Assembly: GCA_964478815.1 (NCBI GenBank)
Contig: CAYZKY010000007.1
Coordinates: 14,512 to 78,511, forward strand
Reading direction: 5' to 3'
DNA: 64,000 bases
Origin: an uncultured Verrucomicrobiota bacterium
GTDB taxonomy: Bacteria; Verrucomicrobiota; Verrucomicrobiia; Limisphaerales; SXQI01
The position numbers and the translations under genes were made by a program. Positions 53,248 to 64,000 of this stretch are shown here, piece after piece. Each line of letters begins with the position of its first letter. Positions within the stretch are counted from its first letter, which is position 1. The notes under the pieces were generated by a model that was given only the letters and a program-made list of their open reading frames with translations, did not search any database and was not told where the DNA came from.

Positions 53248-54585
53248 TTAGTCGTAACCGCCAAACATGAAGAGAGAGCAGGTTTCGTCGGTGGAATTGT
53301 AGAGGGCGTGAAGCTGTCCGGTCTTGCAAAGCGCAACATCGCCAGGCCCCATCGGACGAATTTCAAAAGCACGATCACGGTCCGGGAATTCGCACCAATC
53401 TCCGACAAGCATGTGCGCATGGCCCTCGAGCATGAGAAAGGCTTCCTGATTGTCTCGATGGCGGTGAATTCCAATCGAACATTCCGGTTGGAGAATGTGC
53501 AGGTCCATGTAGTCCACAGCAAAAAAGGTCTCGCGCGTAGGAACTTTTACTGGTTCGGCAGGAATCGTGCCATTGGTTCCGTAAGTGTGCGCATGGTAAT
53601 TGCCCGGAATCAGGTCGCGCCCAAGTTCCGGCAGTTTGTCGGCGCCAAAAACTTCGCGCCGACGTTGTTCAAAAAAGTAATTTGAGAAGAGGTTTCGAAA
53701 TTCGAGGACGCCAAAACCGCCGTGGGGATTGGCGCTGATACCACAGTTGAGAAAACTCCTCCAGCCTCGCATCATCATACCAAAGACGACGCGATAGTTA
53801 GCGCCCCCATTCGAATCCCATGCAGATCCTGCCTCATTGGTGAAGGCGATTTCGATCCGGAGCGGGCGCACCGGGTGCATGCAATGGTCCGGCGCGTAAT
53901 CCAAAAGCTGCCAGCTTTGTCCTTGGCGATTAAGGCGATCCCGCATCGCATCCACGCCCGGACCTTCAAAATCGGCAAGGGATCCTTTGACCAAATCGGG
54001 CCGCGGTTGGATTAACCCGGCGTCGAAGGCTGCTAGACTGCTTCCTTCTAAAAGTTGGCGGAGATTTGGACCGTTGAATGACCAGAGTTCAACTTCATAA
54101 CACCCGGTAGCAGGGTTTAACGGGAGGCGCAAATACGAACTGGTCTGGTTTGCGCCGAGTTTGACCCATGCCTGAATAAAAGCCCCGGGAGATCCTCCGC
54201 TTACCTGGCCCAACCGCGTGCCGGGAGTGCCGCGGTAACAAATCTTCACGAAGGACCCGACCCATTCGCCAGCGCTCGCGTATCCCCGAACCAGATGATA
54301 GTCGGCCATGCGGAAATCGGCGATGTTCTGCTTTTGAAAATCGACTTTGTTATTCTGTTGAACTGGGTTGCCGATGTCGCGCGGCCCCTGGCCCGGTCCA
54401 TAAAGAGTCAATTCGTAAAACGGAAAAAGATGTTCAAGGCTTTCGTGCAGGTAATGCTCGCGTTCGGCGGCTAGATCCTGGAGTTGGGCCTCGCGAATGA
54501 CCCGCAACAGCGGGTTGTCCGAATCGTAGTTCGGCGTCTGGTCTTCGGGCACAATGCGAAAACCGTCTTTGGTCGGGAATTTCAT
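53248..54585 (-). CDS. two-domain protein with C-terminal cupin
   Basis: 445 aa. C-terminal IGIHRHRDNQEAFLMLEGHAHMLVGD..GDVALCKTGQLHALYN (cupin His/Glu metal pattern). The N-terminal ~300 aa is unassigned. Confidence 0.7.
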   Translation of the reverse strand: MKFPTKDGFRIVPEDQTPNYDSDNPLLRVIREAQLQDLAAEREHYLHESLEHLFPFYELTLYGPGQGPRDIGNPVQQNNKVDFQKQNIADFRMADYHLVRGYASAGEWVGSFVKICYRGTPGTRLGQVSGGSPGAFIQAWVKLGANQTSSYLRLPLNPATGCYEVELWSFNGPNLRQLLEGSSLAAFDAGLIQPRPDLVKGSLADFEGPGVDAMRDRLNRQGQSWQLLDYAPDHCMHPVRPLRIEIAFTNEAGSAWDSNGGANYRVVFGMMMRGWRSFLNCGISANPHGGFGVLEFRNLFSNYFFEQRRREVFGADKLPELGRDLIPGNYHAHTYGTNGTIPAEPVKVPTRETFFAVDYMDLHILQPECSIGIHRHRDNQEAFLMLEGHAHMLVGDWCEFPDRDRAFEIRPMGPGDVALCKTGQLHALYNSTDETCSLFMFGGYD

Positions 54586-54588
54586 GGC

Positions 54589-55782
54589 TCAACTCGCGTG
54601 GTAAAGAAAAGCTATAAATTTGAGAGGTTTGTTTCCAGGATTGCGGATGCCGTGCATGCCGCCACTTTTGGTGAAAATGACGGAACCCGGTTTCATTGGA
54701 ATTTCCTTCATCAGTCGCGAATCCAAGCCGAAGATCGGCATTTGGACAGTGGGAAATTGTTGATCCTGCGCCAACTTCGGATCGTCCCCGGCACCCATGT
54801 AGCCGATGCCTTCGCCTTCGACGACATAGTAAAGTTCCTCGCTGCCAATGTGCTGGTGAGTTCCTTCGACGCCACCGGGCGGGACAGTCACTTCGTGAAA
54901 AAAGACAAGGTTCGAGCCGAGCTCCTGTTGAAAAACCCAACGCATGTCCGTGATGTTCACCGCGTCCATCTTTGCGCGATCGTCCTCGAAGAATCGTTTT
55001 GCAAACTCATCGAGTTCATTTTCCAACATCATCGCATTGCGATAACGAACTGGTTTGATGTTCGCGACGTTCGTCACGTACCAGCCGCGCTGAAAATCCA
55101 CCCGGTAATTCTCGACTTTAACCGTATTCTTGGCGTGGTCGTTCGGAATGTCCGAATTGGGCTCCTGCACATTGCGTCCGTAGAAATTATCCCACCCCGC
55201 TTGTTCGTCTGAAATGCCATATCCAGATGGCTCCGCCGAACGACCTTCGCGGAATGCGATTTCGACGCACTCGATTCCGCGCGGATTTTCGAGTGCTTTC
55301 GAAAAACTGGCGACTCTCGTGATCGACCCGCGTTTGCCCATTTGGGCAAGAACCTTGAAGTCGTGATGCTGCCCCGAGGGCGCCTGAAGGGTTTGCCAGA
55401 TTTCGCATTGATATGCATCAACCCACGGGCAGTAGGTCAGGGTGATGGATCCTTCTTCTTTGGGAAGGCCGGCCGCGTGAATCTTCACCCAGGCGATGAC
55501 TTCTCTGCCGAGCACGCGTTGCTTTAAGCGGGCTTGCTCGACGAGTCGGCCCGCGCGGTATTCGATGCGCAGAAAATTCGTCAGCTTTTGTTCGTCCAAG
55601 AGAACTTCACCTTTGAGCACGGTGGCATCCACCTTCGCGCGAACTTCGCCCACGTAATAGCTGTAGCGCGAGGATCGCGTGGCGTTCAAGTACTGCGCGT
55701 GATAAACACGATCCGGAAAAAAAACGATGTGAAAAATCTCGTTTTCCGGCCGGTTCTGAATGGCGTCAAAGCGAAGATCCAT
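54589..55782 (-). CDS. two-domain protein with C-terminal cupin (paralogous architecture)
   Basis: 397 aa. C-terminal GVEGTHQHIGSEELYYVVEGEG..GSVIFTKSGGMHGIRN. Separated by 3 nt from the downstream gene. Confidence 0.7.
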   Translation of the reverse strand: MDLRFDAIQNRPENEIFHIVFFPDRVYHAQYLNATRSSRYSYYVGEVRAKVDATVLKGEVLLDEQKLTNFLRIEYRAGRLVEQARLKQRVLGREVIAWVKIHAAGLPKEEGSITLTYCPWVDAYQCEIWQTLQAPSGQHHDFKVLAQMGKRGSITRVASFSKALENPRGIECVEIAFREGRSAEPSGYGISDEQAGWDNFYGRNVQEPNSDIPNDHAKNTVKVENYRVDFQRGWYVTNVANIKPVRYRNAMMLENELDEFAKRFFEDDRAKMDAVNITDMRWVFQQELGSNLVFFHEVTVPPGGVEGTHQHIGSEELYYVVEGEGIGYMGAGDDPKLAQDQQFPTVQMPIFGLDSRLMKEIPMKPGSVIFTKSGGMHGIRNPGNKPLKFIAFLYHAS

Positions 55783-55800
55783 ACTGTTGGTGTTTTGATT

Positions 55801-57711
55801 TCAGCAGCGCGAGCATAGAATGTCGGCAACGCGAAAGGCGTTGGCCTGGATGGTTAGGGTGGGATTGGCTCCACCGCTCGTTGGCATGAAAGAACCATCG
55901 GTCACGTAGAGGTTGTCGAAATTCCAGGCCCTACAGTCTGGATCGAGGACAGAGTCATCTGGGTCGGTCCCGAAGCGAGCGCCGCCCAAAATATGATTGG
56001 CAATGCGAACCGTGTTGGCGACTTTAACCCCGTAGACGCTTCCAAATTCAATTGTCATCTCATCGTCCTTGATGCCCGGAAACGTTTCCCTCGTCCCGGC
56101 GACCAGGATGTCCCGGCATTGCTCGGCCATTTTGCCCATCAAGTATTCGTCGTGGGGATGCCAGTCCTTCACAATATGCGCCACTTTCCGGCCCCATTTG
56201 TCCTGAATCGGATGCAAGCGGATGTGATTATCGAATTGCGGAATTTGATTGGCCATAAAACTGACCGAGAGACGTGTACCGAAGTCCGTGCGGAGCCAAT
56301 CGAGCAGCTTGTTTCCGAACAATGACGAATCATTTTTGAATCCGTCCCAAAGCGTGTCCAGGTCTGCGCTCCCGTGCGTCCGGGCTAGGGAGATCGGGAG
56401 CGCTTGATCGGATGTGTTATTGTAGATGGCTGCCCCTGCCCAGAGGCCTTGGTCTTTGATCCAGTCTGGGTGCGATGCGAAGTCTGTCGCGAAGTCGCTG
56501 TCCAGCGACACAGATTTGTCGAACCGGCGGCCTGGTATTTCGTTCCACTCTCGGGTGTCGTGTTTATAGAAGCCCGCTTTTAGCTTGATCTCGGCTCCGC
56601 CAAAACAATGCGTCAGAAAGAATCGTCCAAGTAGTCCCTTTGCGGTATCGACCTTTAATCGCGCTCCCATGTTAACTGGATCCTGCTCCGCAGACAGCAA
56701 GAGCAGGCGGACGCTTTCGATGGCCGAGCAGGCCACGATGACGAGTTTACCTTTGACAACGCGTTCGCGTCCGCTCGGGTCACGATAATGAACGCGGTCC
56801 AAACGGCTTCCGACTGCTTCCAAGTGTGTAACAACACAGTTGCAGCGGAGGATCAAATTATCCGGATGTATTTGCATGGTCGGACGCAACAGCGTGACCC
56901 AAGTATTTGATTTCAACCCGAGCGGATCGCCGTAGCGATTGACGTAGCCGGTTTTTGGATTGGCGGCCTTTCGTCCCGAAGGAGCGTGATCCTCGGTGAT
57001 CACAGCAAGCGGCGTGCGATATGGATCAGGGGCTTTTGCACCGAGCCAACCTCTGGCCACGGCCGCCATGCCTCGCTGCGCGATCGGACTGATTGGATTC
57101 GGTGGAGGTGGAGTCTGATAAGGGTCGAGAACATTTGGAGCGAGTTTCTTGAGCTGACCGGCCCGGCTCCCGTTAATACCCACCAAGTCCTCCGCCTTCC
57201 GGTAATAACGCTCCAGATCAGCATAGGAGATTGGCCAGTCGCGCACATGCGCTAGCGCGTCGCCGCCCGGATCGCCCTTCAACGTGCGCCCAGTGTTGAA
57301 CGTCTTTAACTTAAAATCCTCCTCGGAAAAGCGCAGGGAAACCGCCCCATACAATTGCGTACCCCCGCCTACCACTTGCCCCGTGTAACCTTCAATCGTC
57401 ACCACAGGCTTCTCTTCCACAGTCCGCCCGTGTAAGTGCGGTTCATCATTGAGATCTGGTTCGACGAGGTTCGGATAGAACGACGCTCCAGTATTCGCCA
57501 TGTTCGGAACGGTGACGATGCGCTGGCTGCCAAAACCGTACAGTTCGTCCCGCTTGAAATCGCTCAAGGGGTTTCCGTGGACATCGTCTTGCGTGCGCAG
57601 CCGCGGACCCTTCTCAAGCACCAGGACGCGTTTGCCAGCGCGTGCCAAGGTGTAGGCTATGGGCGAACCGCCCGCTCCGCTGCCGATGATCACTGCGTCA
57701 AATTCTTCCAT
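55801..57711 (-). CDS. GMC-family FAD-dependent oxidoreductase
   Basis: Start MEEFDAVIIGSGAGGSPIAYTLARAGKRVLVLEKG (16 nt after the upstream stop). The C-terminal ..NLYVTDGSFMPTSGGANPTLTIQANAF is typical of GMC enzymes. Confidence 0.85.
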   Translation of the reverse strand: MEEFDAVIIGSGAGGSPIAYTLARAGKRVLVLEKGPRLRTQDDVHGNPLSDFKRDELYGFGSQRIVTVPNMANTGASFYPNLVEPDLNDEPHLHGRTVEEKPVVTIEGYTGQVVGGGTQLYGAVSLRFSEEDFKLKTFNTGRTLKGDPGGDALAHVRDWPISYADLERYYRKAEDLVGINGSRAGQLKKLAPNVLDPYQTPPPPNPISPIAQRGMAAVARGWLGAKAPDPYRTPLAVITEDHAPSGRKAANPKTGYVNRYGDPLGLKSNTWVTLLRPTMQIHPDNLILRCNCVVTHLEAVGSRLDRVHYRDPSGRERVVKGKLVIVACSAIESVRLLLLSAEQDPVNMGARLKVDTAKGLLGRFFLTHCFGGAEIKLKAGFYKHDTREWNEIPGRRFDKSVSLDSDFATDFASHPDWIKDQGLWAGAAIYNNTSDQALPISLARTHGSADLDTLWDGFKNDSSLFGNKLLDWLRTDFGTRLSVSFMANQIPQFDNHIRLHPIQDKWGRKVAHIVKDWHPHDEYLMGKMAEQCRDILVAGTRETFPGIKDDEMTIEFGSVYGVKVANTVRIANHILGGARFGTDPDDSVLDPDCRAWNFDNLYVTDGSFMPTSGGANPTLTIQANAFRVADILCSRC

Positions 57712-57727
57712 ACATCGCTTTCCGCTC

Positions 57728-58792
57728 TTAGCCTCGGTAAGCCGGATCCCTTCCATACGGAGGTTCCTGGCACAGTGCGTAATCAAATGGAAATTGATCC
57801 GCCAACCAATGCCATCCGGCCGAATTGGCATTCCCGCCATATTTCGGATGGCAGAACGCACCTGTCCAGACATGCCGCCGCATCAAAAAGAGGAAATATT
57901 GGGGATCGGCATATAAATCCGATTTCCAGCCAGGCACCTGCCCCTTCGACATTTCTGTGTAGAGGGTTTCATACATCGACTCTGGCATATCGCGCGGTTC
58001 CAGATAAGGATTTCGCTGTCGAAGAATGCGATTAATCTGCAACAGACACGACTTGTAGGCAGGCAGATGTTGCCGTTCCTCTCGAGCAAGTATCTTGTCG
58101 ATATAGTTGGCGACTCCGATCGCGTGATCAAGTTTGTGCAATTGCGGGTCGAGGGTTTTCCGGGGCCCTCCACCAGGGTTATTTTGAAAGAGCTCAGCTT
58201 CGCGCGAATTGAACGGGAGAATGTGATTGGTAATCCGTTTTATCAAGGTGAGTTCCCATTTCTCCAGAACCACTGATTCGAAACAACCGAATGTGAAAAA
58301 GACGGAAACTTCTTCGCCGTTGGCTAGGCGCTCGCGCTGAGGATTAATCGGGTCAGGTTGGACTTTGCCGTTCACGATGAGCGCATAACGATAAACCCTC
58401 GCCGCGCGCAATAGAACGGTCCTCGCCATATAAAGCGAATCCTCGACTCGTTGCAACGGAACATTGACAACGCTCGCATTGGGCAATCCGGCTACAACAA
58501 CTTCCGGAGTGGCTAGAGCCTCGGATAATTTATAAATGAAGGTGACCTCGTTCCATTCCAGTCGTTGTTCTGGAGTCAACTCCCGGTCGCCATGAGCTTC
58601 AACGACGGGAAATCGCCAACTTTCACAATAGCGTCCCGAAACGCCAGCACCATTTACGCCAAAATAGTCGTGTCGACGGACAGTCCCCTCCGACAACGAC
58701 CAATCTCCGACGTCGCGGCTCAGATATTTCGCGGTCAGATCGTATATGTGCGAGGCGTAATCAGGGTAAGGCTTCAAGATTCTTGTGTTCAT
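57728..58792 (-). CDS. gluconate-2-dehydrogenase-subunit-3-like partner protein with N-terminal CBM48/E-set-like module
   Basis: C-terminal ..GAFCHPKYGGNANSAGWHWL (small-subunit family motif). N-terminal VTFIYKL..VVVAGLPN..YRYALIVNGKVQPDPINP resembles glycogen-binding CBM48. Confidence 0.6.
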   Translation of the reverse strand: MNTRILKPYPDYASHIYDLTAKYLSRDVGDWSLSEGTVRRHDYFGVNGAGVSGRYCESWRFPVVEAHGDRELTPEQRLEWNEVTFIYKLSEALATPEVVVAGLPNASVVNVPLQRVEDSLYMARTVLLRAARVYRYALIVNGKVQPDPINPQRERLANGEEVSVFFTFGCFESVVLEKWELTLIKRITNHILPFNSREAELFQNNPGGGPRKTLDPQLHKLDHAIGVANYIDKILAREERQHLPAYKSCLLQINRILRQRNPYLEPRDMPESMYETLYTEMSKGQVPGWKSDLYADPQYFLFLMRRHVWTGAFCHPKYGGNANSAGWHWLADQFPFDYALCQEPPYGRDPAYRG

Positions 58793-59141
58793 GAGAAAAT
58801 GGCACCCGCTCGCTTAATCAGGTGCATTTTGGCAGGCAATTTGCGGGCCGCAAGCTACAATTCTGACCGTTTCTGGATTGTAACTGATCGAGAGCTAAAT
58901 CTCATTTTCCTCGCGGAACTGCTTTGATTTTGCCTTCAACCAGAAATCTTCGATTCAATGTTTGACAAACAGCGATTCTGAATCGGCAGAATCGTTTTGT
59001 CTCCAGAAAAACTCCCTGACTGTGCTTTTCGTCAGCGGATCCGCGCCTTCCGCGACCAGACCGTTGCGGGTGCATCCGAGCACCCTGTCCAACAGTTCAA
59101 TTGTGATTGCCGTTTGTCAAGCCTTTCCCCTCTGTTGAAGT

Positions 59142-60032
59142 TCACTCTTTCGTTTTCGACGGGATTCTATTGAGGTGTCCTTGCCAAATAGATTCAGAAT
59201 GCCCGCTCCCAACTTCGCGGCTTATGTCCCGCGCCTCGGTTAGATACTCACGTGCCCGTCGAAAGTCACCCATACCCGCAAATGCCAACCCGATTTCCCC
59301 TAAATCCGTCCCGACTTCAAACCCGTTACCGCCAATGGAGTGGATTCGCAGCGCTTCGAACAGGACCTCCAAAGCCTTTCGAAAATTGCGATTGTCGAAA
59401 TGTATCGTGCCACTCAGCCGCAATTGGTCACCAAGGAGCCTCTGATCACCGTTGGTTCCTATCATTGAAATTACGGCTTCGCTCATTTGCAAGGCCTCGC
59501 CAAGCTGACGATCTTCAGCAAGTGCCACCGCCAGATTACCCGTCCAGAGAGCCACTCGCCCGGCGTCACCTAGGTCGCGCGCCTCAAGGACGGCGCGCTT
59601 CAAACAGCCTGCCGCGTCTCGGAATCGACGACACCTAATGTAGGCGTTACCGAGACAACTCTGCAATTGTGCGTGGTGGAGCCTTGTCGGGCTGCGATTC
59701 CAATCGTCAAGCTGTTCGGTCGCCGAGACCGCGACATTGAGCCATTCCGCCCACTTTTCCCCAGGCAATCGAAGACCAAAGATTGACGGGCTTGCAATCG
59801 GCAAATGCGCACAGATTTCCGCAATCTGAGTGTCGCCATGAAATAAAGGAGCAAGCGTCTCGAAAGTGTGCTCAAGTTGTGACCACTCTTCGTCAAAGGC
59901 TTTAAGGGCCATGATTTGGTTACCCGGGCTCTGGTATTGCAGCTCCCAGTAATGAAGCTTCTCAACAAAGTAGTGTCCAAGGCGACGTGTCGCCCTCACC
60001 GAGTCTGTCAAAATGTTTCCGTGTTCACTCAT
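59142..60032 (-). CDS. TPR-repeat protein (probable sensor/partner of the TIR-NB-ARC protein)
   Basis: Start MSEHG.. overlaps the upstream stop (ATGAGTGA). About 8 TPR_12-like repeats (LGNAYIRCRRFRDAAGCLKRAV, TGNLAVALAEDRQLGEALQMSE, LGEIGLAFAGMGDFRRAREYLTEA). Confidence 0.75.
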   Translation of the reverse strand: MSEHGNILTDSVRATRRLGHYFVEKLHYWELQYQSPGNQIMALKAFDEEWSQLEHTFETLAPLFHGDTQIAEICAHLPIASPSIFGLRLPGEKWAEWLNVAVSATEQLDDWNRSPTRLHHAQLQSCLGNAYIRCRRFRDAAGCLKRAVLEARDLGDAGRVALWTGNLAVALAEDRQLGEALQMSEAVISMIGTNGDQRLLGDQLRLSGTIHFDNRNFRKALEVLFEALRIHSIGGNGFEVGTDLGEIGLAFAGMGDFRRAREYLTEARDISREVGSGHSESIWQGHLNRIPSKTKE

Positions 60033-61506
60033 CTCGCATCCATCTCGCAGTCGCCACGAGCATTGAATGAATCCAATATCGCGAATCATTGATACTCTCA
60101 ATCAACCCAGCGTCGTAAAACGAGCCGAGGGTCCTTGTCAGATCGCTACCGCGGACCACCATCGCGACTGACGCGTGGTCTTGCGAGAAAATCGCAGGTG
60201 CGGGGGCCAACGTGGCAAGCTTTAGGAACCGGTTCTTCATCACCTCGGAGAGGTGATGGATGCTGGTTACGAAAAGTGCTCCGACGGTTTGCGAAATCTC
60301 CCCTCCTGGTAGCGGCACGTCTCCAGGCGGTGATTCATCGAGTAGCCGTTGCCTCTCGCCTAGTTCCTTAAAAAGTTCCTCAACCCCAAACGAAGTATTG
60401 AGTTCAGCGCTGACTCGAAGTAGGCGGCCAGCCACTTTAACCGCCAAAGGAAGGTATTCTAGCTTGGCGCACAATTCGCTGCTCAGCGTCGGCGAATGAT
60501 TGACCACAGCCGGAGCAATGTCCCGTAGCAAGTCCAGGGCGTCAGGGGCCTTAAGCACCCCCAGACGAAGTAGATTTTCGTCCGAGCTCACGAAGAGGTG
60601 TGCGATTGCTGGCGCGCGAGTTGTAATCAGGGTCGCACCCAATGGCCCTGCAACCATCAGGCGCGACGTGCCAGCAAGCCAGACGTCATCTAATACAACC
60701 AGCACTCGCTTGTCGCTCAGGTGCTCATGGAGCCGGATGTCAACCGAAGCTGCGTCGCTTCCAACATTTACGCCGCGCGCAGATGCCCACAGCCGCAGGA
60801 TCTCGCCAAAGTCGGGATTGCTTCCTACTGTAGCCCAGAGCACGCCGTCTGGAAATGCGTTCCGGACACGGTCGGCATGAGCAACGCCGGACGCCAACGC
60901 CGTTTTGCCGACTCCTGGCCATCCATAGATCGCAGTTACCGCACTCTTCCCTTTACTCGCACCAACAAGGCGTTTGCAAACGGTTTCGAAGTCCTCTTTT
61001 CTGCCGAATAAATGTGGAGGCGTGAGGGGCGCGGCGCCGCCACGAAAAACGGCGGCTGTTTTGCGCTCGGTTTGAGACTGTTGGCGGGTCGCCTTCCTCG
61101 CAGCAGCGAAGTGTTCATGGAGCATCTGGTAAGCCACGTCCCGCGAACGTCGGAAGTCCAGGTATCGAAAGCGCCGAAGGTCTGGCGGCAGTTCGACATC
61201 CTCCAGGAGCAATGGGATAAATCGCTCTTTTCCATTTCTGGGATCGTCGATCAACACGATTTCGCGCTCTGCAGCTGCCCACTCGGATCCCAGGCCGCGT
61301 GGGGAAAGCACCTGCAAAAGAAAGCGGGAAGTTTGAACGCCTTCAACGACTTTGTGGTAAATATTGCCGCCAAGCGGCACGATCCACCGATCTAGCCACA
61401 CTGCAAAATTGTCGGCGCGAAGTTTGGTGGCTAATTCCTCGACTTCGTCTCCGTCGCGAGAGCTATAGCTCAAAAACACGTCATACTTGTAGGCTTCAGA
61501 GTTCAC
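60025..61506 (-). CDS. TIR-domain NB-ARC (STAND) NTPase
   Basis: TIR: YDVFLSYSSRDG..SEWAAAERE. NB-ARC: IYGWPGVGKTAL (Walker A), RVLVVLDDVW (Walker B), LITTRA, EYLPLAVKV, RYWIHSML. Confidence 0.85.
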   Translation of the reverse strand: MNSEAYKYDVFLSYSSRDGDEVEELATKLRADNFAVWLDRWIVPLGGNIYHKVVEGVQTSRFLLQVLSPRGLGSEWAAAEREIVLIDDPRNGKERFIPLLLEDVELPPDLRRFRYLDFRRSRDVAYQMLHEHFAAARKATRQQSQTERKTAAVFRGGAAPLTPPHLFGRKEDFETVCKRLVGASKGKSAVTAIYGWPGVGKTALASGVAHADRVRNAFPDGVLWATVGSNPDFGEILRLWASARGVNVGSDAASVDIRLHEHLSDKRVLVVLDDVWLAGTSRLMVAGPLGATLITTRAPAIAHLFVSSDENLLRLGVLKAPDALDLLRDIAPAVVNHSPTLSSELCAKLEYLPLAVKVAGRLLRVSAELNTSFGVEELFKELGERQRLLDESPPGDVPLPGGEISQTVGALFVTSIHHLSEVMKNRFLKLATLAPAPAIFSQDHASVAMVVRGSDLTRTLGSFYDAGLIESINDSRYWIHSMLVATARWMRDE

Positions 61507-62522
61507 AGACGAAACTCCATGATTTGCCCGCTCGGAAGCCGAACTTTGACGCCATTCTCGATCCAGGTTTGCGGGTATCGTCCATACATGGACCGATATT
61601 GAGGCGGCACGCTACCTTTCATCGCGGCCTCTTCCAAATGCAGACTGGTGAGCGCGAGCTTCTGATCCGGCCAGACGAGCCCGAGGCCGTCCTCTGTCAA
61701 GTGGCACTTCTGCTTGTGTTCGTCAGTCGCATCTGCGAGTTCCCAGATTCGGTCCCAAGTGAGCGAGATAACGCCGTTGCCGCTTAAGCTGACCGTTAGC
61801 CCTCTGTGGCTCGTGGAGAAGCGCTCAATCGTATTGATCGATACATGCATGCTCTCGGACTGTGTCGCACTGGAGGACACTTCTTGCAGGAGTCGCGCCT
61901 GCAATCGCCTGGCTTCGTAAATGCCACCGAAGGGACAGTCAATCGCAAGGCATCGCTTGAGATACTGAGCAGCCTCTCCGTATTCTCCATAGGCGTGCGC
62001 CACAGCAGCCAAATGATAACCGATGTCGGGGAAATTCTCGATCGACGAAGCAAGGGGGGCTAAGTAACGCTTCGCAGTGGCCGTATCGCCCACGCGGAAA
62101 GCCATCCATCCTCGGGTGTCGGCGATGCAAATGGCGCTTGTGGCGCCGGTTTCGGCCATGCGAATCCACTTGGCGTTCTCGCCAAAGCGTGCGATTGGAG
62201 CGACGTCGGCGATTGCCCAAGCGAGTTGGGTTGCAAGTTGGGGATCGTTCCGCGACTGAAGCGCCTGCTCCAAGATCGGCATCGCCTCCCCGTTTCTGGA
62301 AAGCATGTCGAGCCAGCGGGTATACGCAACCAGGTACGCTTTGTTAACAGAGCCTCGGGAGAGGTGTGCGCGAAGGGCCTGGCTCAAACTGCGCTCGTAC
62401 TCGGAGTCCTGAAACGCCAGCCGCGCGGCATTCAACATAGCAATCTCAGCACCTTGGGTTGAGAACTGCGCAACAGTCACCCGGTGTAACCAAGATTTTA
62501 AATGGTCGCGAATCGACGGCAT
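61503..62522 (-). CDS. TPR-like / DUF2442-like two-domain protein, first gene of the TIR operon
   Basis: 339 aa. Helical-repeat N-terminal half (..YGEYGEAAQYLKRCLAID..). C-terminal ISLTWDRIWELADATDEHKQKCHLTEDGLGLVWPDQKLAL is DUF2442-like. Its stop overlaps the TIR gene start (ATGA). Confidence 0.6.
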   Translation of the reverse strand: MPSIRDHLKSWLHRVTVAQFSTQGAEIAMLNAARLAFQDSEYERSLSQALRAHLSRGSVNKAYLVAYTRWLDMLSRNGEAMPILEQALQSRNDPQLATQLAWAIADVAPIARFGENAKWIRMAETGATSAICIADTRGWMAFRVGDTATAKRYLAPLASSIENFPDIGYHLAAVAHAYGEYGEAAQYLKRCLAIDCPFGGIYEARRLQARLLQEVSSSATQSESMHVSINTIERFSTSHRGLTVSLSGNGVISLTWDRIWELADATDEHKQKCHLTEDGLGLVWPDQKLALTSLHLEEAAMKGSVPPQYRSMYGRYPQTWIENGVKVRLPSGQIMEFRL

Positions 62523-62709
62523 CCATTATTCACTTGCGGGCAAGAAAGAGGCTACGGATGCGTCCGATCAATGTCAAACTCGGGCACGCTGCGGGGCGTG
62601 ATTGAAACTGCCGGTCAGTTTTTGGCGTTCGCTCAATAAATGTCCCACCAGGCGTTAGAGCGGGCGGCTCGAAGCTTTCGAATCTGGCATCGGTGTCTGG
62701 GAAAGGGCT

Positions 62710-63996
62710 TCAAAAGTAAGCGTAGAGGGCCTGGAGGCGGGGCACGGCGAGGGTTTCCGCAAGGTTTTGGGCGAGGGAGGAGACAAGCCAGCGGAGGAAC
62801 TTGACGGAGTGCTGGGTGGCCTGCCGGGCAGCGGTGAGCAGGGGCGAAATGGGGCGGCCCGCCTGCTGCGCGGCCGTCTGGAGCTGTTCCGCCCGCTGGG
62901 CGCGGCGGCGGTCTTCGGCGGCCGGGGCCACCCGGTGTTCGCGGGCGAGCCGGGCGTGGTCAATCTCGAGGAGGTTGTGCGTCAGGGTGAGGCAAAGCGC
63001 CTGCGTGGTGCGGGTTTCCGGGGTGGTGCCCCAGGCCTTGCGTCCGCCGAGCTTGCTCTTCAGTTCGTCGAAGACCTTCTCAATCTCCCAGCGCCGGCGG
63101 TAGAGCTCGGCGAGGAGGCCGGGCGGCAGGCGGAAATCGTTCGTCAGGAACTGGTAGGTCTGGCCGGCCGGGTCGGTGTACGTGACCAGGCGCAATGCGT
63201 GCCCGCCGTTGAGCGCGACGCGCGGATCGGCCTGCACCCCGTGGTTCCGGTCCTCCGCGGGATCGACCTTCCGGTTTTCCAGCACGGTGCGGCCCATGTT
63301 CTCCTTGATCCGGCTCAGGAAATAGACGCCCGTCTCGCGGCGGCCGCGCGCCCAGAAGGGCAGGTCGAGGCCGCCCTTGTCGTCGATCAACAGGACGCGC
63401 GTTCCCTTGGGCGCTTCGTGCTTGAGCCCCCGGGGCGTGACCCGCTCCAGCGCGGAGGTATCGTGCTCGTGGAGCCCCTCCCCGGTGGCCAGGTGGCGCA
63501 GGAGGTGGGTGTGCAAGTTCAGGCTGTAGAAATGGCCGACGGCCATCTTCTTGCCTTGATGCCGGGCGTCGTGGGTGGCGGCCCGGTGCCAGTGCCCGTC
63601 CAGGGCGAAGCACGGATAGCCCGCCAGCTCGGGCAGATCGGCCAGGCGGTCGGCCACCCGTCCGGCTCCGGCGGCCCGCACCTGCGCTTCCACCTCGGCC
63701 AGCACGGCCCGGCGGCGCGGGCTGGCCAGGGCCTGGAAGTAGGCGGCGTGGGCGGGCTCCCCGGCCAGCCCCAGGGCGCGGCGGTGCTGGAGGAAGGCCC
63801 GCCCGCTGGAGTCGGCGCGCAGGACGCGTTCGACGCCCATCCGCAGCCAGCGGGCATCGGGAACCTTGGGACACTCGCGGGTCTGGGCGGCGGCTTCAGC
63901 CAGGCCGGCCAAAGGTTGGAAAAAGGCATCGGTCACGGTGGCTTCAGAATGCAGAATAGACATTGAGCCAATTGTGTCGGACCTCAGGCCAGTCAA
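62710..63996 (-). CDS. IS4-family DDE transposase (apparently intact; IS ends not resolved, may run off the window)
   Basis: 428 aa. ..FALDGHWH.. (D), ..LLIDDKG.. (D), ..YRRRWEIEKVFDELKSKLG (Y-x2-R-x3-E-x6-K signature). Very high GC. Confidence 0.85.
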   Translation of the reverse strand: MTGLRSDTIGSMSILHSEATVTDAFFQPLAGLAEAAAQTRECPKVPDARWLRMGVERVLRADSSGRAFLQHRRALGLAGEPAHAAYFQALASPRRRAVLAEVEAQVRAAGAGRVADRLADLPELAGYPCFALDGHWHRAATHDARHQGKKMAVGHFYSLNLHTHLLRHLATGEGLHEHDTSALERVTPRGLKHEAPKGTRVLLIDDKGGLDLPFWARGRRETGVYFLSRIKENMGRTVLENRKVDPAEDRNHGVQADPRVALNGGHALRLVTYTDPAGQTYQFLTNDFRLPPGLLAELYRRRWEIEKVFDELKSKLGGRKAWGTTPETRTTQALCLTLTHNLLEIDHARLAREHRVAPAAEDRRRAQRAEQLQTAAQQAGRPISPLLTAARQATQHSVKFLRWLVSSLAQNLAETLAVPRLQALYAYF

Positions 63997-64000
63997 GCCT

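Follow-up and report, generated by a model that had tools for sequence, protein, structure and literature searches.

The 64,000-nucleotide stretch of DNA from an uncultured soil Verrucomicrobiota bacterium analyzed here (the window) carries, on its minus strand at positions 59142-62522, an operon of three genes, indicated as A, B and C. B encodes a TIR-NB-ARC protein with no repeat domain, while TPR repeats are encoded by the separate gene C. As judged from the comparison of homologous loci, this split is genuine and old, and is due neither to a sequencing error nor to a broken gene. The operon is rather likely to be a conflict system of the STAND/NLR type, most likely directed against phages and acting by abortive infection, the receptor of which would be split between polypeptides. 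Gene structure, domains, the conserved split and gene order, purifying selection and variable contexts are all shown by the sequence data.

A (61503-62522, minus strand) is the first gene of the operon: it starts with ATG and encodes 339 amino acids (aa). B (60025-61506, minus strand) starts with GTG and encodes 493 aa, with a TIR domain followed by an NB-ARC composed of NBD, HD1 and winged helix (WHD). C (59142-60032, minus strand) encodes a TPR protein of 296 aa, counted from the ATG at 60032; the longest open reading frame (ORF) for C opens at a TTG at 60101, and in all homologues the start corresponds to this ATG. The three minus-strand ORFs described in an earlier note on this DNA are confirmed in the ORF list. 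B and C overlap by 8 nucleotides (nt), ATGAGTGA at 60025-60032, including the stop of B, with C in another frame; both this sequence and the length of C are as previously reported. At the junction between A and B (61503-61506) the GTG start of B overlaps the TGA stop of A, the actual sequence being GTGA and not ATGA, as had been given.

The junction between B and C

The genuinely split, three-component TIR-NB-ARC system proposed in the earlier note held in all tests run. The alternative considered there, a frameshift in a single gene, is excluded by identical assemblies, by an indel-free variant and by differing frame offsets. Over the B/C junction, four assemblies from separate runs (L093-L096) match the window at 100% identity, and a ~95% identical variant from another metagenome, spanning positions 59925-60227, shows 16 substitutions and no gaps. 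The overlap between B and C measures 8, 8, 11, 8, 25 and 17 nt across six loci, and in L004 the frame offset differs: the varied overlaps, along with the L004 offset, count against a frameshift mutation common to the loci as well as against a conserved site of programmed frameshifting.

The same organization is found in homologous loci with 47–68% identity, where the split is conserved, an A-like gene is located upstream and a C-like gene downstream, and no fused homologues are present. Proteins P0002-P0006, 47-68% identical to B, are 489-508 aa long; the range becomes 489-543 aa when P0007, 39% identical, is included. All of them (P0002-P0007) are devoid of TPRs and end with the same conserved C-terminus as B: the final sequence YWIHSMLVATAxWxRxE, followed by the stop, is kept in 7 homologues. 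In every locus the gene following the B homologue is C-like, with an ATG of its own and a conserved N-terminus (the start MSxxxD[IV]LTDxVRAxRRLGH is conserved in 5 loci). In six loci, namely the window, L001-L004 and L006, B is immediately preceded by an A-like gene (identity 43-62%): in all six the order A-B-C is conserved, and the junctions are overlapping or tightly spaced. Natural variants carry 11 synonymous and 3 nonsynonymous changes in C, 9 and 4 in B, and 5 and 6 in A; purifying selection acts on C.

The split extends beyond this family. The best 120 database relatives were ranked by their score to the B profile: 44 of the 47 NB-ARC proteins scoring at least 160 bits stop no more than 30 aa from the winged helix, while tails of at least 150 aa are found in 48 of the 73 more distant relatives. 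Among 80 genome relatives which are still more remote (25-35% identity), the majority have the NB-ARC fused to a tail of 300-1400 aa. Judging from the profile ranking, the split is a property of a whole clade of NB-ARC proteins; the three-gene TIR family is rare and nested in this broader clade of split NB-ARC and TPR proteins, which itself seems to be undescribed.

A C-like gene is adjacent to the NB-ARC gene in seven out of seven sampled neighbourhoods (L005, L008, L088-L091, L097). In six of them the match to the C profile takes in the non-TPR N-terminal segment; the exception is L005, an HTH-NB-ARC, whose 160-aa neighbour gave no match to the full-length C profile. The NTPase consists of the NB-ARC only in L008 and L091, adjacent to C-like genes of 498 and 634 aa respectively, and carries a DUF4062 domain in L089 (C-like gene of 335 aa) and a CHAT domain in L090 (518 aa). 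In L088 a PNP_UDP-NB-ARC gene is preceded by a C-like gene of 586 aa: the two overlap by 4 nt (L088:3244-6878), in an order which is the reverse of that seen in the window. L097 is a TIR-NB-ARC, where the C-like gene is cut by the contig end. In this most divergent TIR-NB-ARC relative (P0007; L097:385-2158) the overlapping C-like gene is kept, and no A-like gene is present upstream. The CHAT-NB-ARC and C-like pair of L090 (L090:357-12136) lies beside a second CHAT protein and a CsgG-like protein, with a TIR_2 protein of 801 aa encoded on the other strand, and may be part of a larger conflict island.

The sister pairs (L005, L008, L088-L091) belong to the same clade as B, with 35-40% identity, and, like B, end right after the winged helix and have an adjacent C-like partner; unlike the window locus, they feature other N-terminal modules, longer TPR partners (335-634 aa) and no A-like gene. 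N-terminal modules found in the short clade include TIR, DUF4062, CHAT, PNP_UDP, XRE-type helix-turn-helix (HTH), SARP/BTAD and Trans_reg_C, or none at all. DUF4062 has been reported as a TIR-like NADase (bioRxiv 10.64898/2026.05.01.722283). The displacement of effectors in a preserved operon context is listed as typical of genuine conflict systems (PMC7159879), and the swapped N-terminal domains of the clade therefore count towards a conflict-system reading.

A normal, fused TIR-NB-ARC-TPR polypeptide could in principle still be obtained from B and C by programmed ribosomal frameshifting at ATGAGTGA, and 8-nt overlaps resembling it (CATGAGTGA or CATGAGTAA) do recur in three close loci. Yet, the overlap length is variable (8, 11, 25 or 17 nt), the needed shift is +1 in four loci and towards the other frame in L004, and sister systems have gaps of 5-31 nt or a reversed gene order. 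Moreover, C always opens with its own ATG and conserved N-terminus, and ATGA-type overlaps are an ordinary signature of translational coupling: programmed frameshifting is considered very improbable. Hardly credible at all is a local pseudogenizing frameshift, or an assembly error, in a single TIR-NB-ARC-TPR gene: the B and C ORFs do overlap in different frames, and most of the distant genome relatives of the NB-ARC are fused to long repeat tails, but, besides the junction identity and the indel-free variant, stop and start are placed alike in the six homologous loci even though overlaps and frame offsets differ, purifying selection acts on C, the entire nearest NB-ARC clade stops at the winged helix, and in L088 the C-like gene sits upstream of the NTPase gene.

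Domain composition of the three proteins

All window features described in this section lie on the minus strand. The TIR domain of B (61138-61479, aa 10-123) matches Pfam TIR_2 with E=1e-24, above the gathering score, and contains the sequence SEWAAAERE (61261-61287, aa 74-82), as had been noticed earlier. The putative catalytic Glu is E80: its counterpart by alignment in 9mud, a structure of the Cat1 TIR, is the Glu of SDWCWDELE, and E80 is conserved in P0001-P0006. Its WxxxE position is that of the catalytic Glu of TIR NADases. A Gln is found at this position in P0007 (L097, 39% identity) in the MAFFT alignment. Solved TIRs matched by sequence are those of Cat1, AbTIR, PdTIR and TcpB, and the TIR domain of B is a predicted NADase.

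The NB-ARC NTPase with its winged helix occupies positions 60028-60999 (aa 170-493). Pfam NB-ARC (PF00931) matches aa 170-366 with E=4.1e-19, scoring 69.3 bits where the gathering score is 23.5. Every one of the motifs listed in the earlier note is found in B: the Walker A GWPGVGKT (60901-60924, aa 195-202), the Walker B LVVLDDVW (60679-60702, aa 269-276), LITTR, corresponding to TTR/RNBS-B (60616-60630, aa 293-297), the GLPL-like LPLAVKV (60433-60453, aa 352-358) and WIHS, at the MHD position (60064-60075, aa 478-481). All motif residues are invariant in the alignment of seven homologues. The stop is located 12 aa past WIHS, in keeping with the earlier remark that B ends after the winged helix: NBD, HD1 and WHD are present, and the repeats are absent. 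Among proteins of solved structure, the NTPase comes closest to plant NLRs (ADR1-like, ZAR1, MLA13) and to Apaf-1. Going by its sequence, B is a bona fide STAND protein of the NB-ARC/AP-ATPase clade, without a repeat domain in cis.

C matches TPR_12, TPR_10 and TPR_2 above the Pfam threshold, and TPR_1 is also matched, over aa ~120-275; the claim of a separate 296-aa TPR ORF is thus borne out. The TPR array (59190-59687) is composed of about 4 units and is ~170 aa long. It is preceded by a helical segment of ~115 aa (59688-60032) with no Pfam match, which is common to the partner proteins of the sister split NB-ARCs. This segment might be either a canonical arm or a specialized docking element.

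In A, a TPR-like helical repeat region is found at 61878-62450 (aa ~25-215). Its Pfam TPR matches are all sub-threshold; over the same residues the A family profile matches TPR modules in thousands of proteins, the lowest E being 1e-26. The AlphaFold2 (AF2) model of this region is an all-helical repeat structure, with predicted local distance difference test (pLDDT) values of 60-90, and the Foldseek neighbours of the solenoid are PilF, PilW, APC6 and OGT TPRs. A and C were also compared as possible paralogues, an idea which was dropped (hhalign probability 0.3%).

The C-terminal domain of A (61506-61856, aa 223-339), a small one of the alpha/beta type, is family-specific, and includes a DUF2442-like part (61662-61808, aa 239-287) and the invariant motif LTWDRxWELAD...C..T.D.LG...WP...T.LH. 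Pfam DUF2442 (PF10387) matches the C-terminal segment in 4 of the 5 A family members, with a best E=8.7e-6. Of the two parts that A had been credited with, the helical repeats stand, while the resemblance to DUF2442 is weak in the window copy. No relatives of the C-terminal ~115 aa were found outside the A family in a profile search of 1.84 billion representatives; full-length A is limited to three 50%-identity clusters among the same 1.84 billion representatives of ~15 billion proteins. A-like genes are absent from the 80 genome loci and from the sister split systems: as far as these searches indicate, A is restricted to the tight TIR family.

AF2 models of A, built from 5-sequence multiple alignments both for the full length and for the C-terminal domain alone, have a mean pLDDT of ~58, and only the TPR part is usable. 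A fold search with the low-confidence C-terminal model gave non-significant results, the top ones being 3k8r and 2x8n, both small uncharacterized bacterial proteins, and a search of PDB sequences with the C-terminal profile gave chance-level matches alone, to uS14 and SRP19. The conserved motif LALTSLHLxEAAMKGxVPP (61560-61640, aa ~290-310) shows weak matches to the C-terminus of uS14 (E ~0.5-1), probably due to chance. In L001 (L001:6975-8011; GCA_037025285.1) the A gene has a 1-nt frameshift inside the DUF2442-like part, after which the rest of the domain can still be read in a different frame; both B and C are intact, and the frameshift is either an assembly error or a sign of decay of A. 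DUF2442 is the antitoxin partner in DUF4160/DUF2442 toxin-antitoxin pairs (PMC8198452, PMC12065111), which makes a binding or neutralizing, or a regulatory, role of A plausible by analogy.

Candidate mechanism and its alternatives

In the scheme proposed for the operon, the physical contacts between B and C and between A and B, cleavage of NAD+, the trigger and a role in defence are inferred. B would supply the effector, the predicted NADase TIR, and the NB-ARC nucleotide switch, without a sensor; C would be the detached sensor arm, supplied in trans, whose N-terminal helical segment would dock onto the winged-helix end of B. Translational coupling of the two genes would lead to near-stoichiometric amounts of the proteins. 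Binding of a trigger to the short TPR array of C would permit nucleotide exchange and release the ADP-locked state; B, possibly with C, would then oligomerize, and the clustered TIR domains would become active. Hydrolysis and depletion of NAD+ would finally stop the growth of the infected cell. NAD+ depletion seems more parsimonious than Thoeris-like signalling, because the operon encodes no signal-responsive effector. A would be an accessory subunit specific to the TIR family, most plausibly a regulator or an adaptor: it may either restrain B before infection, in an antitoxin-like manner, or extend the sensing surface as a co-sensor.

A number of observations weigh against this scheme. At ~170 aa, the TPR array of C is far below the size of validated Avs sensors (at least 400 aa; PMC13581612), and may be too short to wrap a phage protein. 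Comparison of the N-terminal 110 aa of C with the region following the winged helix in 17 fused relatives gave nothing below E=0.2, and docking of this segment on B is for this reason only inferred. As for A, the window copy scores E=0.16 and 12.7 bits against DUF2442, below the gathering score of 23.9, and both AF2 models of its C-terminal domain are of low confidence; A may be dispensable, given its frameshift in L001 and the lack of an A-like gene upstream in L097, the relative with 39% identity. The sister clade features HTH, SARP and Trans_reg_C fusions, probably transcription regulators: immunity is thus not the only function within the NB-ARC clade. None of the PADLOC systems is matched in full length by A, B or C, no known defence gene is found next to the window copy, and PADLOC found nothing in most of the neighbourhoods of the homologous loci. 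None of the sequencing runs in which the locus was found is an RNA run.

A somewhat different, rather unlikely arrangement is that of a guard-type NLR made of exchangeable parts, in which A would be an antitoxin-like brake, or guardee, and activation would follow from the loss of this inhibitor. The sensor-less effector-NB-ARCs of the clade would recruit a TPR sensor in trans through the C-like N-terminal segment, and sensors and effectors could be shuffled as separate genes. A phage removing or modifying A would release the TIR-NB-ARC, unlike the direct wrapping of a ligand by Avs.

It is unlikely that the TIR domain is instead a signal generator, Thoeris-like or similar to those of plant TIR-NB-LRR proteins (TNL), with A, or an unlinked protein, as the effector or receptor activated by the signal. 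Weak hidden Markov model similarity to the ThsB and ThcB4 TIRs is consistent with such a role, as is the conservation of A, a partner with no assigned function; in addition, TPR proteins of type VIII Thoeris have been proposed to perceive cyclic ADP-ribose (bioRxiv 10.64898/2025.12.03.692087). In A, however, no effector domain is recognizable, be it an enzyme or a pore former, and known nucleotide-binding domains such as SLOG, Macro or SAVED are absent; the best matches of the TIR are to NADase-type effectors, namely Cat1, AbTIR and the SAVED-TIR and retron-TIR models. The same survey of TIR signalling set aside the TIRs of Avs/STAND proteins, together with presumed NAD+-depleting effector TIRs (bioRxiv 10.64898/2025.12.03.692087).

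A non-immune function is similarly unlikely: the operon would then be an NB-ARC/TPR signalling or regulatory module of the AfsR/MalT type, in which the TIR would serve for protein interaction. In NCBIfam the NTPase does come nearest to AfsR-type regulators, HTH, SARP or Trans_reg_C domains are found at the N-terminus of many sister proteins, and the window locus adjoins a metabolic operon, with terminator-like and promoter-like sites in between. Such a function does not fit with the conservation of the TIR core and of the Glu at the catalytic position, with the absence of DNA-binding domains from A, B and C, or with the presence of death-type effectors (CHAT, PNP_UDP, DUF4062) in the sister clade. 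The cassette, moreover, occurs in unrelated contexts, including a conjugative element, the ~95% similarity is limited to the cassette itself, and the extreme rarity and patchiness of the family are unusual in a housekeeping regulator.

Genomic setting and relation to known systems

No gene beyond A, B and C is conserved between the loci. L001 lies inside a conjugative element, with ArdC, T4CP/TraG and SSB on one side and a relaxase on the other, a DndB/DpdB-like gene is found 7 kb away in L002, L003 adjoins a PIN protein and an HTH gene, and an IS4 element is located right beside the window copy: these settings are suggestive of mobility and of defence. Three soil or peat metagenome runs yielded contigs ~95% identical to the window which cover just positions 59148-~62591, leaving uncovered the 5 kb downstream flank (54000-59147) and the upstream flank; past ~62580-62591 their sequences differ between runs. 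At a depth of 2-3x, this is suggestive of a cassette moving between genomic backgrounds. No close member of the family is present in GTDB species genomes, IMG/VR viral contigs or PLSDB plasmids, where the best match, at 35% identity, concerns the NB-ARC only and comes without an A-like gene.

Domain matches confirm that the operon is located, as reported earlier, between a metabolic operon and an IS4 element. Downstream, the flank is a gluconate-dehydrogenase-subunit-3-like/GMC-oxidoreductase operon. A terminator-like hairpin (58973-58994, minus strand) is found ~150 nt downstream of C and is followed by a promoter-like site for the metabolic operon (58905-58877), both weak and both from consensus scans. 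No convincing sigma-70 promoter was found upstream of A by the promoter consensus scan, and no Rfam families are present within 58000-64000. The gluconate-dehydrogenase-subunit-3-like ORF (57728-58792) and the GMC-oxidoreductase ORF (55801-57873) share 146 nt (57728-57873); independent gene calls on the identical contig L093 set the GMC start 39 codons later (651 aa), and the start of the listed GMC ORF is therefore probably too far upstream.

On the upstream side, an IS4-family-like DDE transposase is found at 62710-63996 of the window, on the minus strand; its NCBIfam IS4 score is 88 bits, below the cutoff of 115, and its ORF reaches the window end, so that the far end of the element is outside the view. 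Its GC content of 0.70, and of 0.87 at third codon positions, compared to 0.58 for the window, clearly marks it as foreign DNA. The locus itself had been described as lower in GC: its value is 0.560, against 0.581 for the whole window and a mean of 0.578 (standard deviation 0.023) for 3.4-kb windows, and only the IS4 element deviates. A GC-based island call was dropped, the locus being within one standard deviation of the window. The two slips of the earlier note, on GC and on the ATGA, are minor and leave the interpretation unaffected.

That no named system has this composition, as previously stated, agrees with the lack of a full-length PADLOC match, and no published description of an A-B-C composition was found in the searched literature. 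Partial matches do exist. The single-gene PADLOC model PDC-S66 matches the TIR part only (E=2.3e-14, B aa 3-98 against positions 144-239 of the 282 of the model), A matches PDC-M71B marginally, and ThsB matches to B are also marginal (E ~2e-3 to 5e-3). Thoeris effector models match neither A nor C, and the locus is not assigned to Thoeris. NCBIfam similarities of the NTPase to AfsR and FxSxx_TPR are far below threshold (58.7 bits against a cutoff of 300 for the FxSxx_TPR equivalog).

Avs (AVAST) proteins, like the window system, combine an N-terminal death effector, here TIR, with a central STAND NTPase and a TPR-type sensor, and the presumed logic, activation of the effector by ligand-induced oligomerization, is the same (PMC13581612). 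They are, however, single polypeptides with sensors of at least 400 aa, while in the window the sensor is a separate protein of 296 aa, with ~170 aa of TPR, the NTPase belongs to the NB-ARC/AP-ATPase clade, and an extra TPR-DUF2442-like protein is present. No Avs models are found among the PADLOC matches at E<=0.1: despite the TIR-STAND, Avs-like logic, the system does not qualify as Avs, either by its architecture or by its model matches. In STAND NTPases the repeats are typically part of the same chain as the NTPase (Kaur et al. 2021, PMC8195603), and a 2026 STAND survey analyzed only sensors of at least 400 aa (PMC13581612).

The order of TIR and NB-ARC, and the NB-ARC motifs, are those of plant TIR-NB-LRR and TIR-NB (TN) proteins. 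The latter have no repeat domain and work with partner proteins. The window system differs from the plant receptors in being bacterial, in using a TPR and not an LRR sensor, provided by a translationally coupled neighbour gene, and in having no EDS1 or helper-NLR pathway. In the actinobacterial FxSxx-COOH/VMAP ternary systems (Kaur et al. 2020, PMC7159879) the TIR-AP-ATPase gene is, as in the window, distinct from that of a TPR protein, in that case a TPR-bearing vWA protein; these systems are built on vWA-MoxR-VMAP components and a processed peptide, none of which is found in the window locus. Finally, the C-terminus of A resembles the antitoxin DUF2442 of DUF4160/DUF2442 pairs such as dhiTA of Dickeya dadantii (PMC8198452), but is fused to a TPR solenoid, with a similarity which is weak and below the Pfam threshold; no DUF4160 toxin gene is present in the operon at any locus examined.

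Split systems of this sort are absent from PADLOC v2, and escape surveys which demand a long C-terminal sensor in cis, as with the filter of at least 400 aa (PMC13581612). Nothing in the Avs, bNACHT and Thoeris systems described so far corresponds to the TPR-DUF2442-like subunit, which could represent a regulator of a new type. With its small size of 3.4 kb and no need of further genes, the cassette is directly testable. STAND/NLR receptors are usually described as single chains, where the sensor auto-inhibits the switch in cis; a conserved family, and the larger clade surrounding it, put the sensor on a separate, translationally coupled protein. They would thereby provide a natural system for studying auto-inhibition and ligand-induced activation in trans, and the separate genes may be a route for recombining sensors and effectors.

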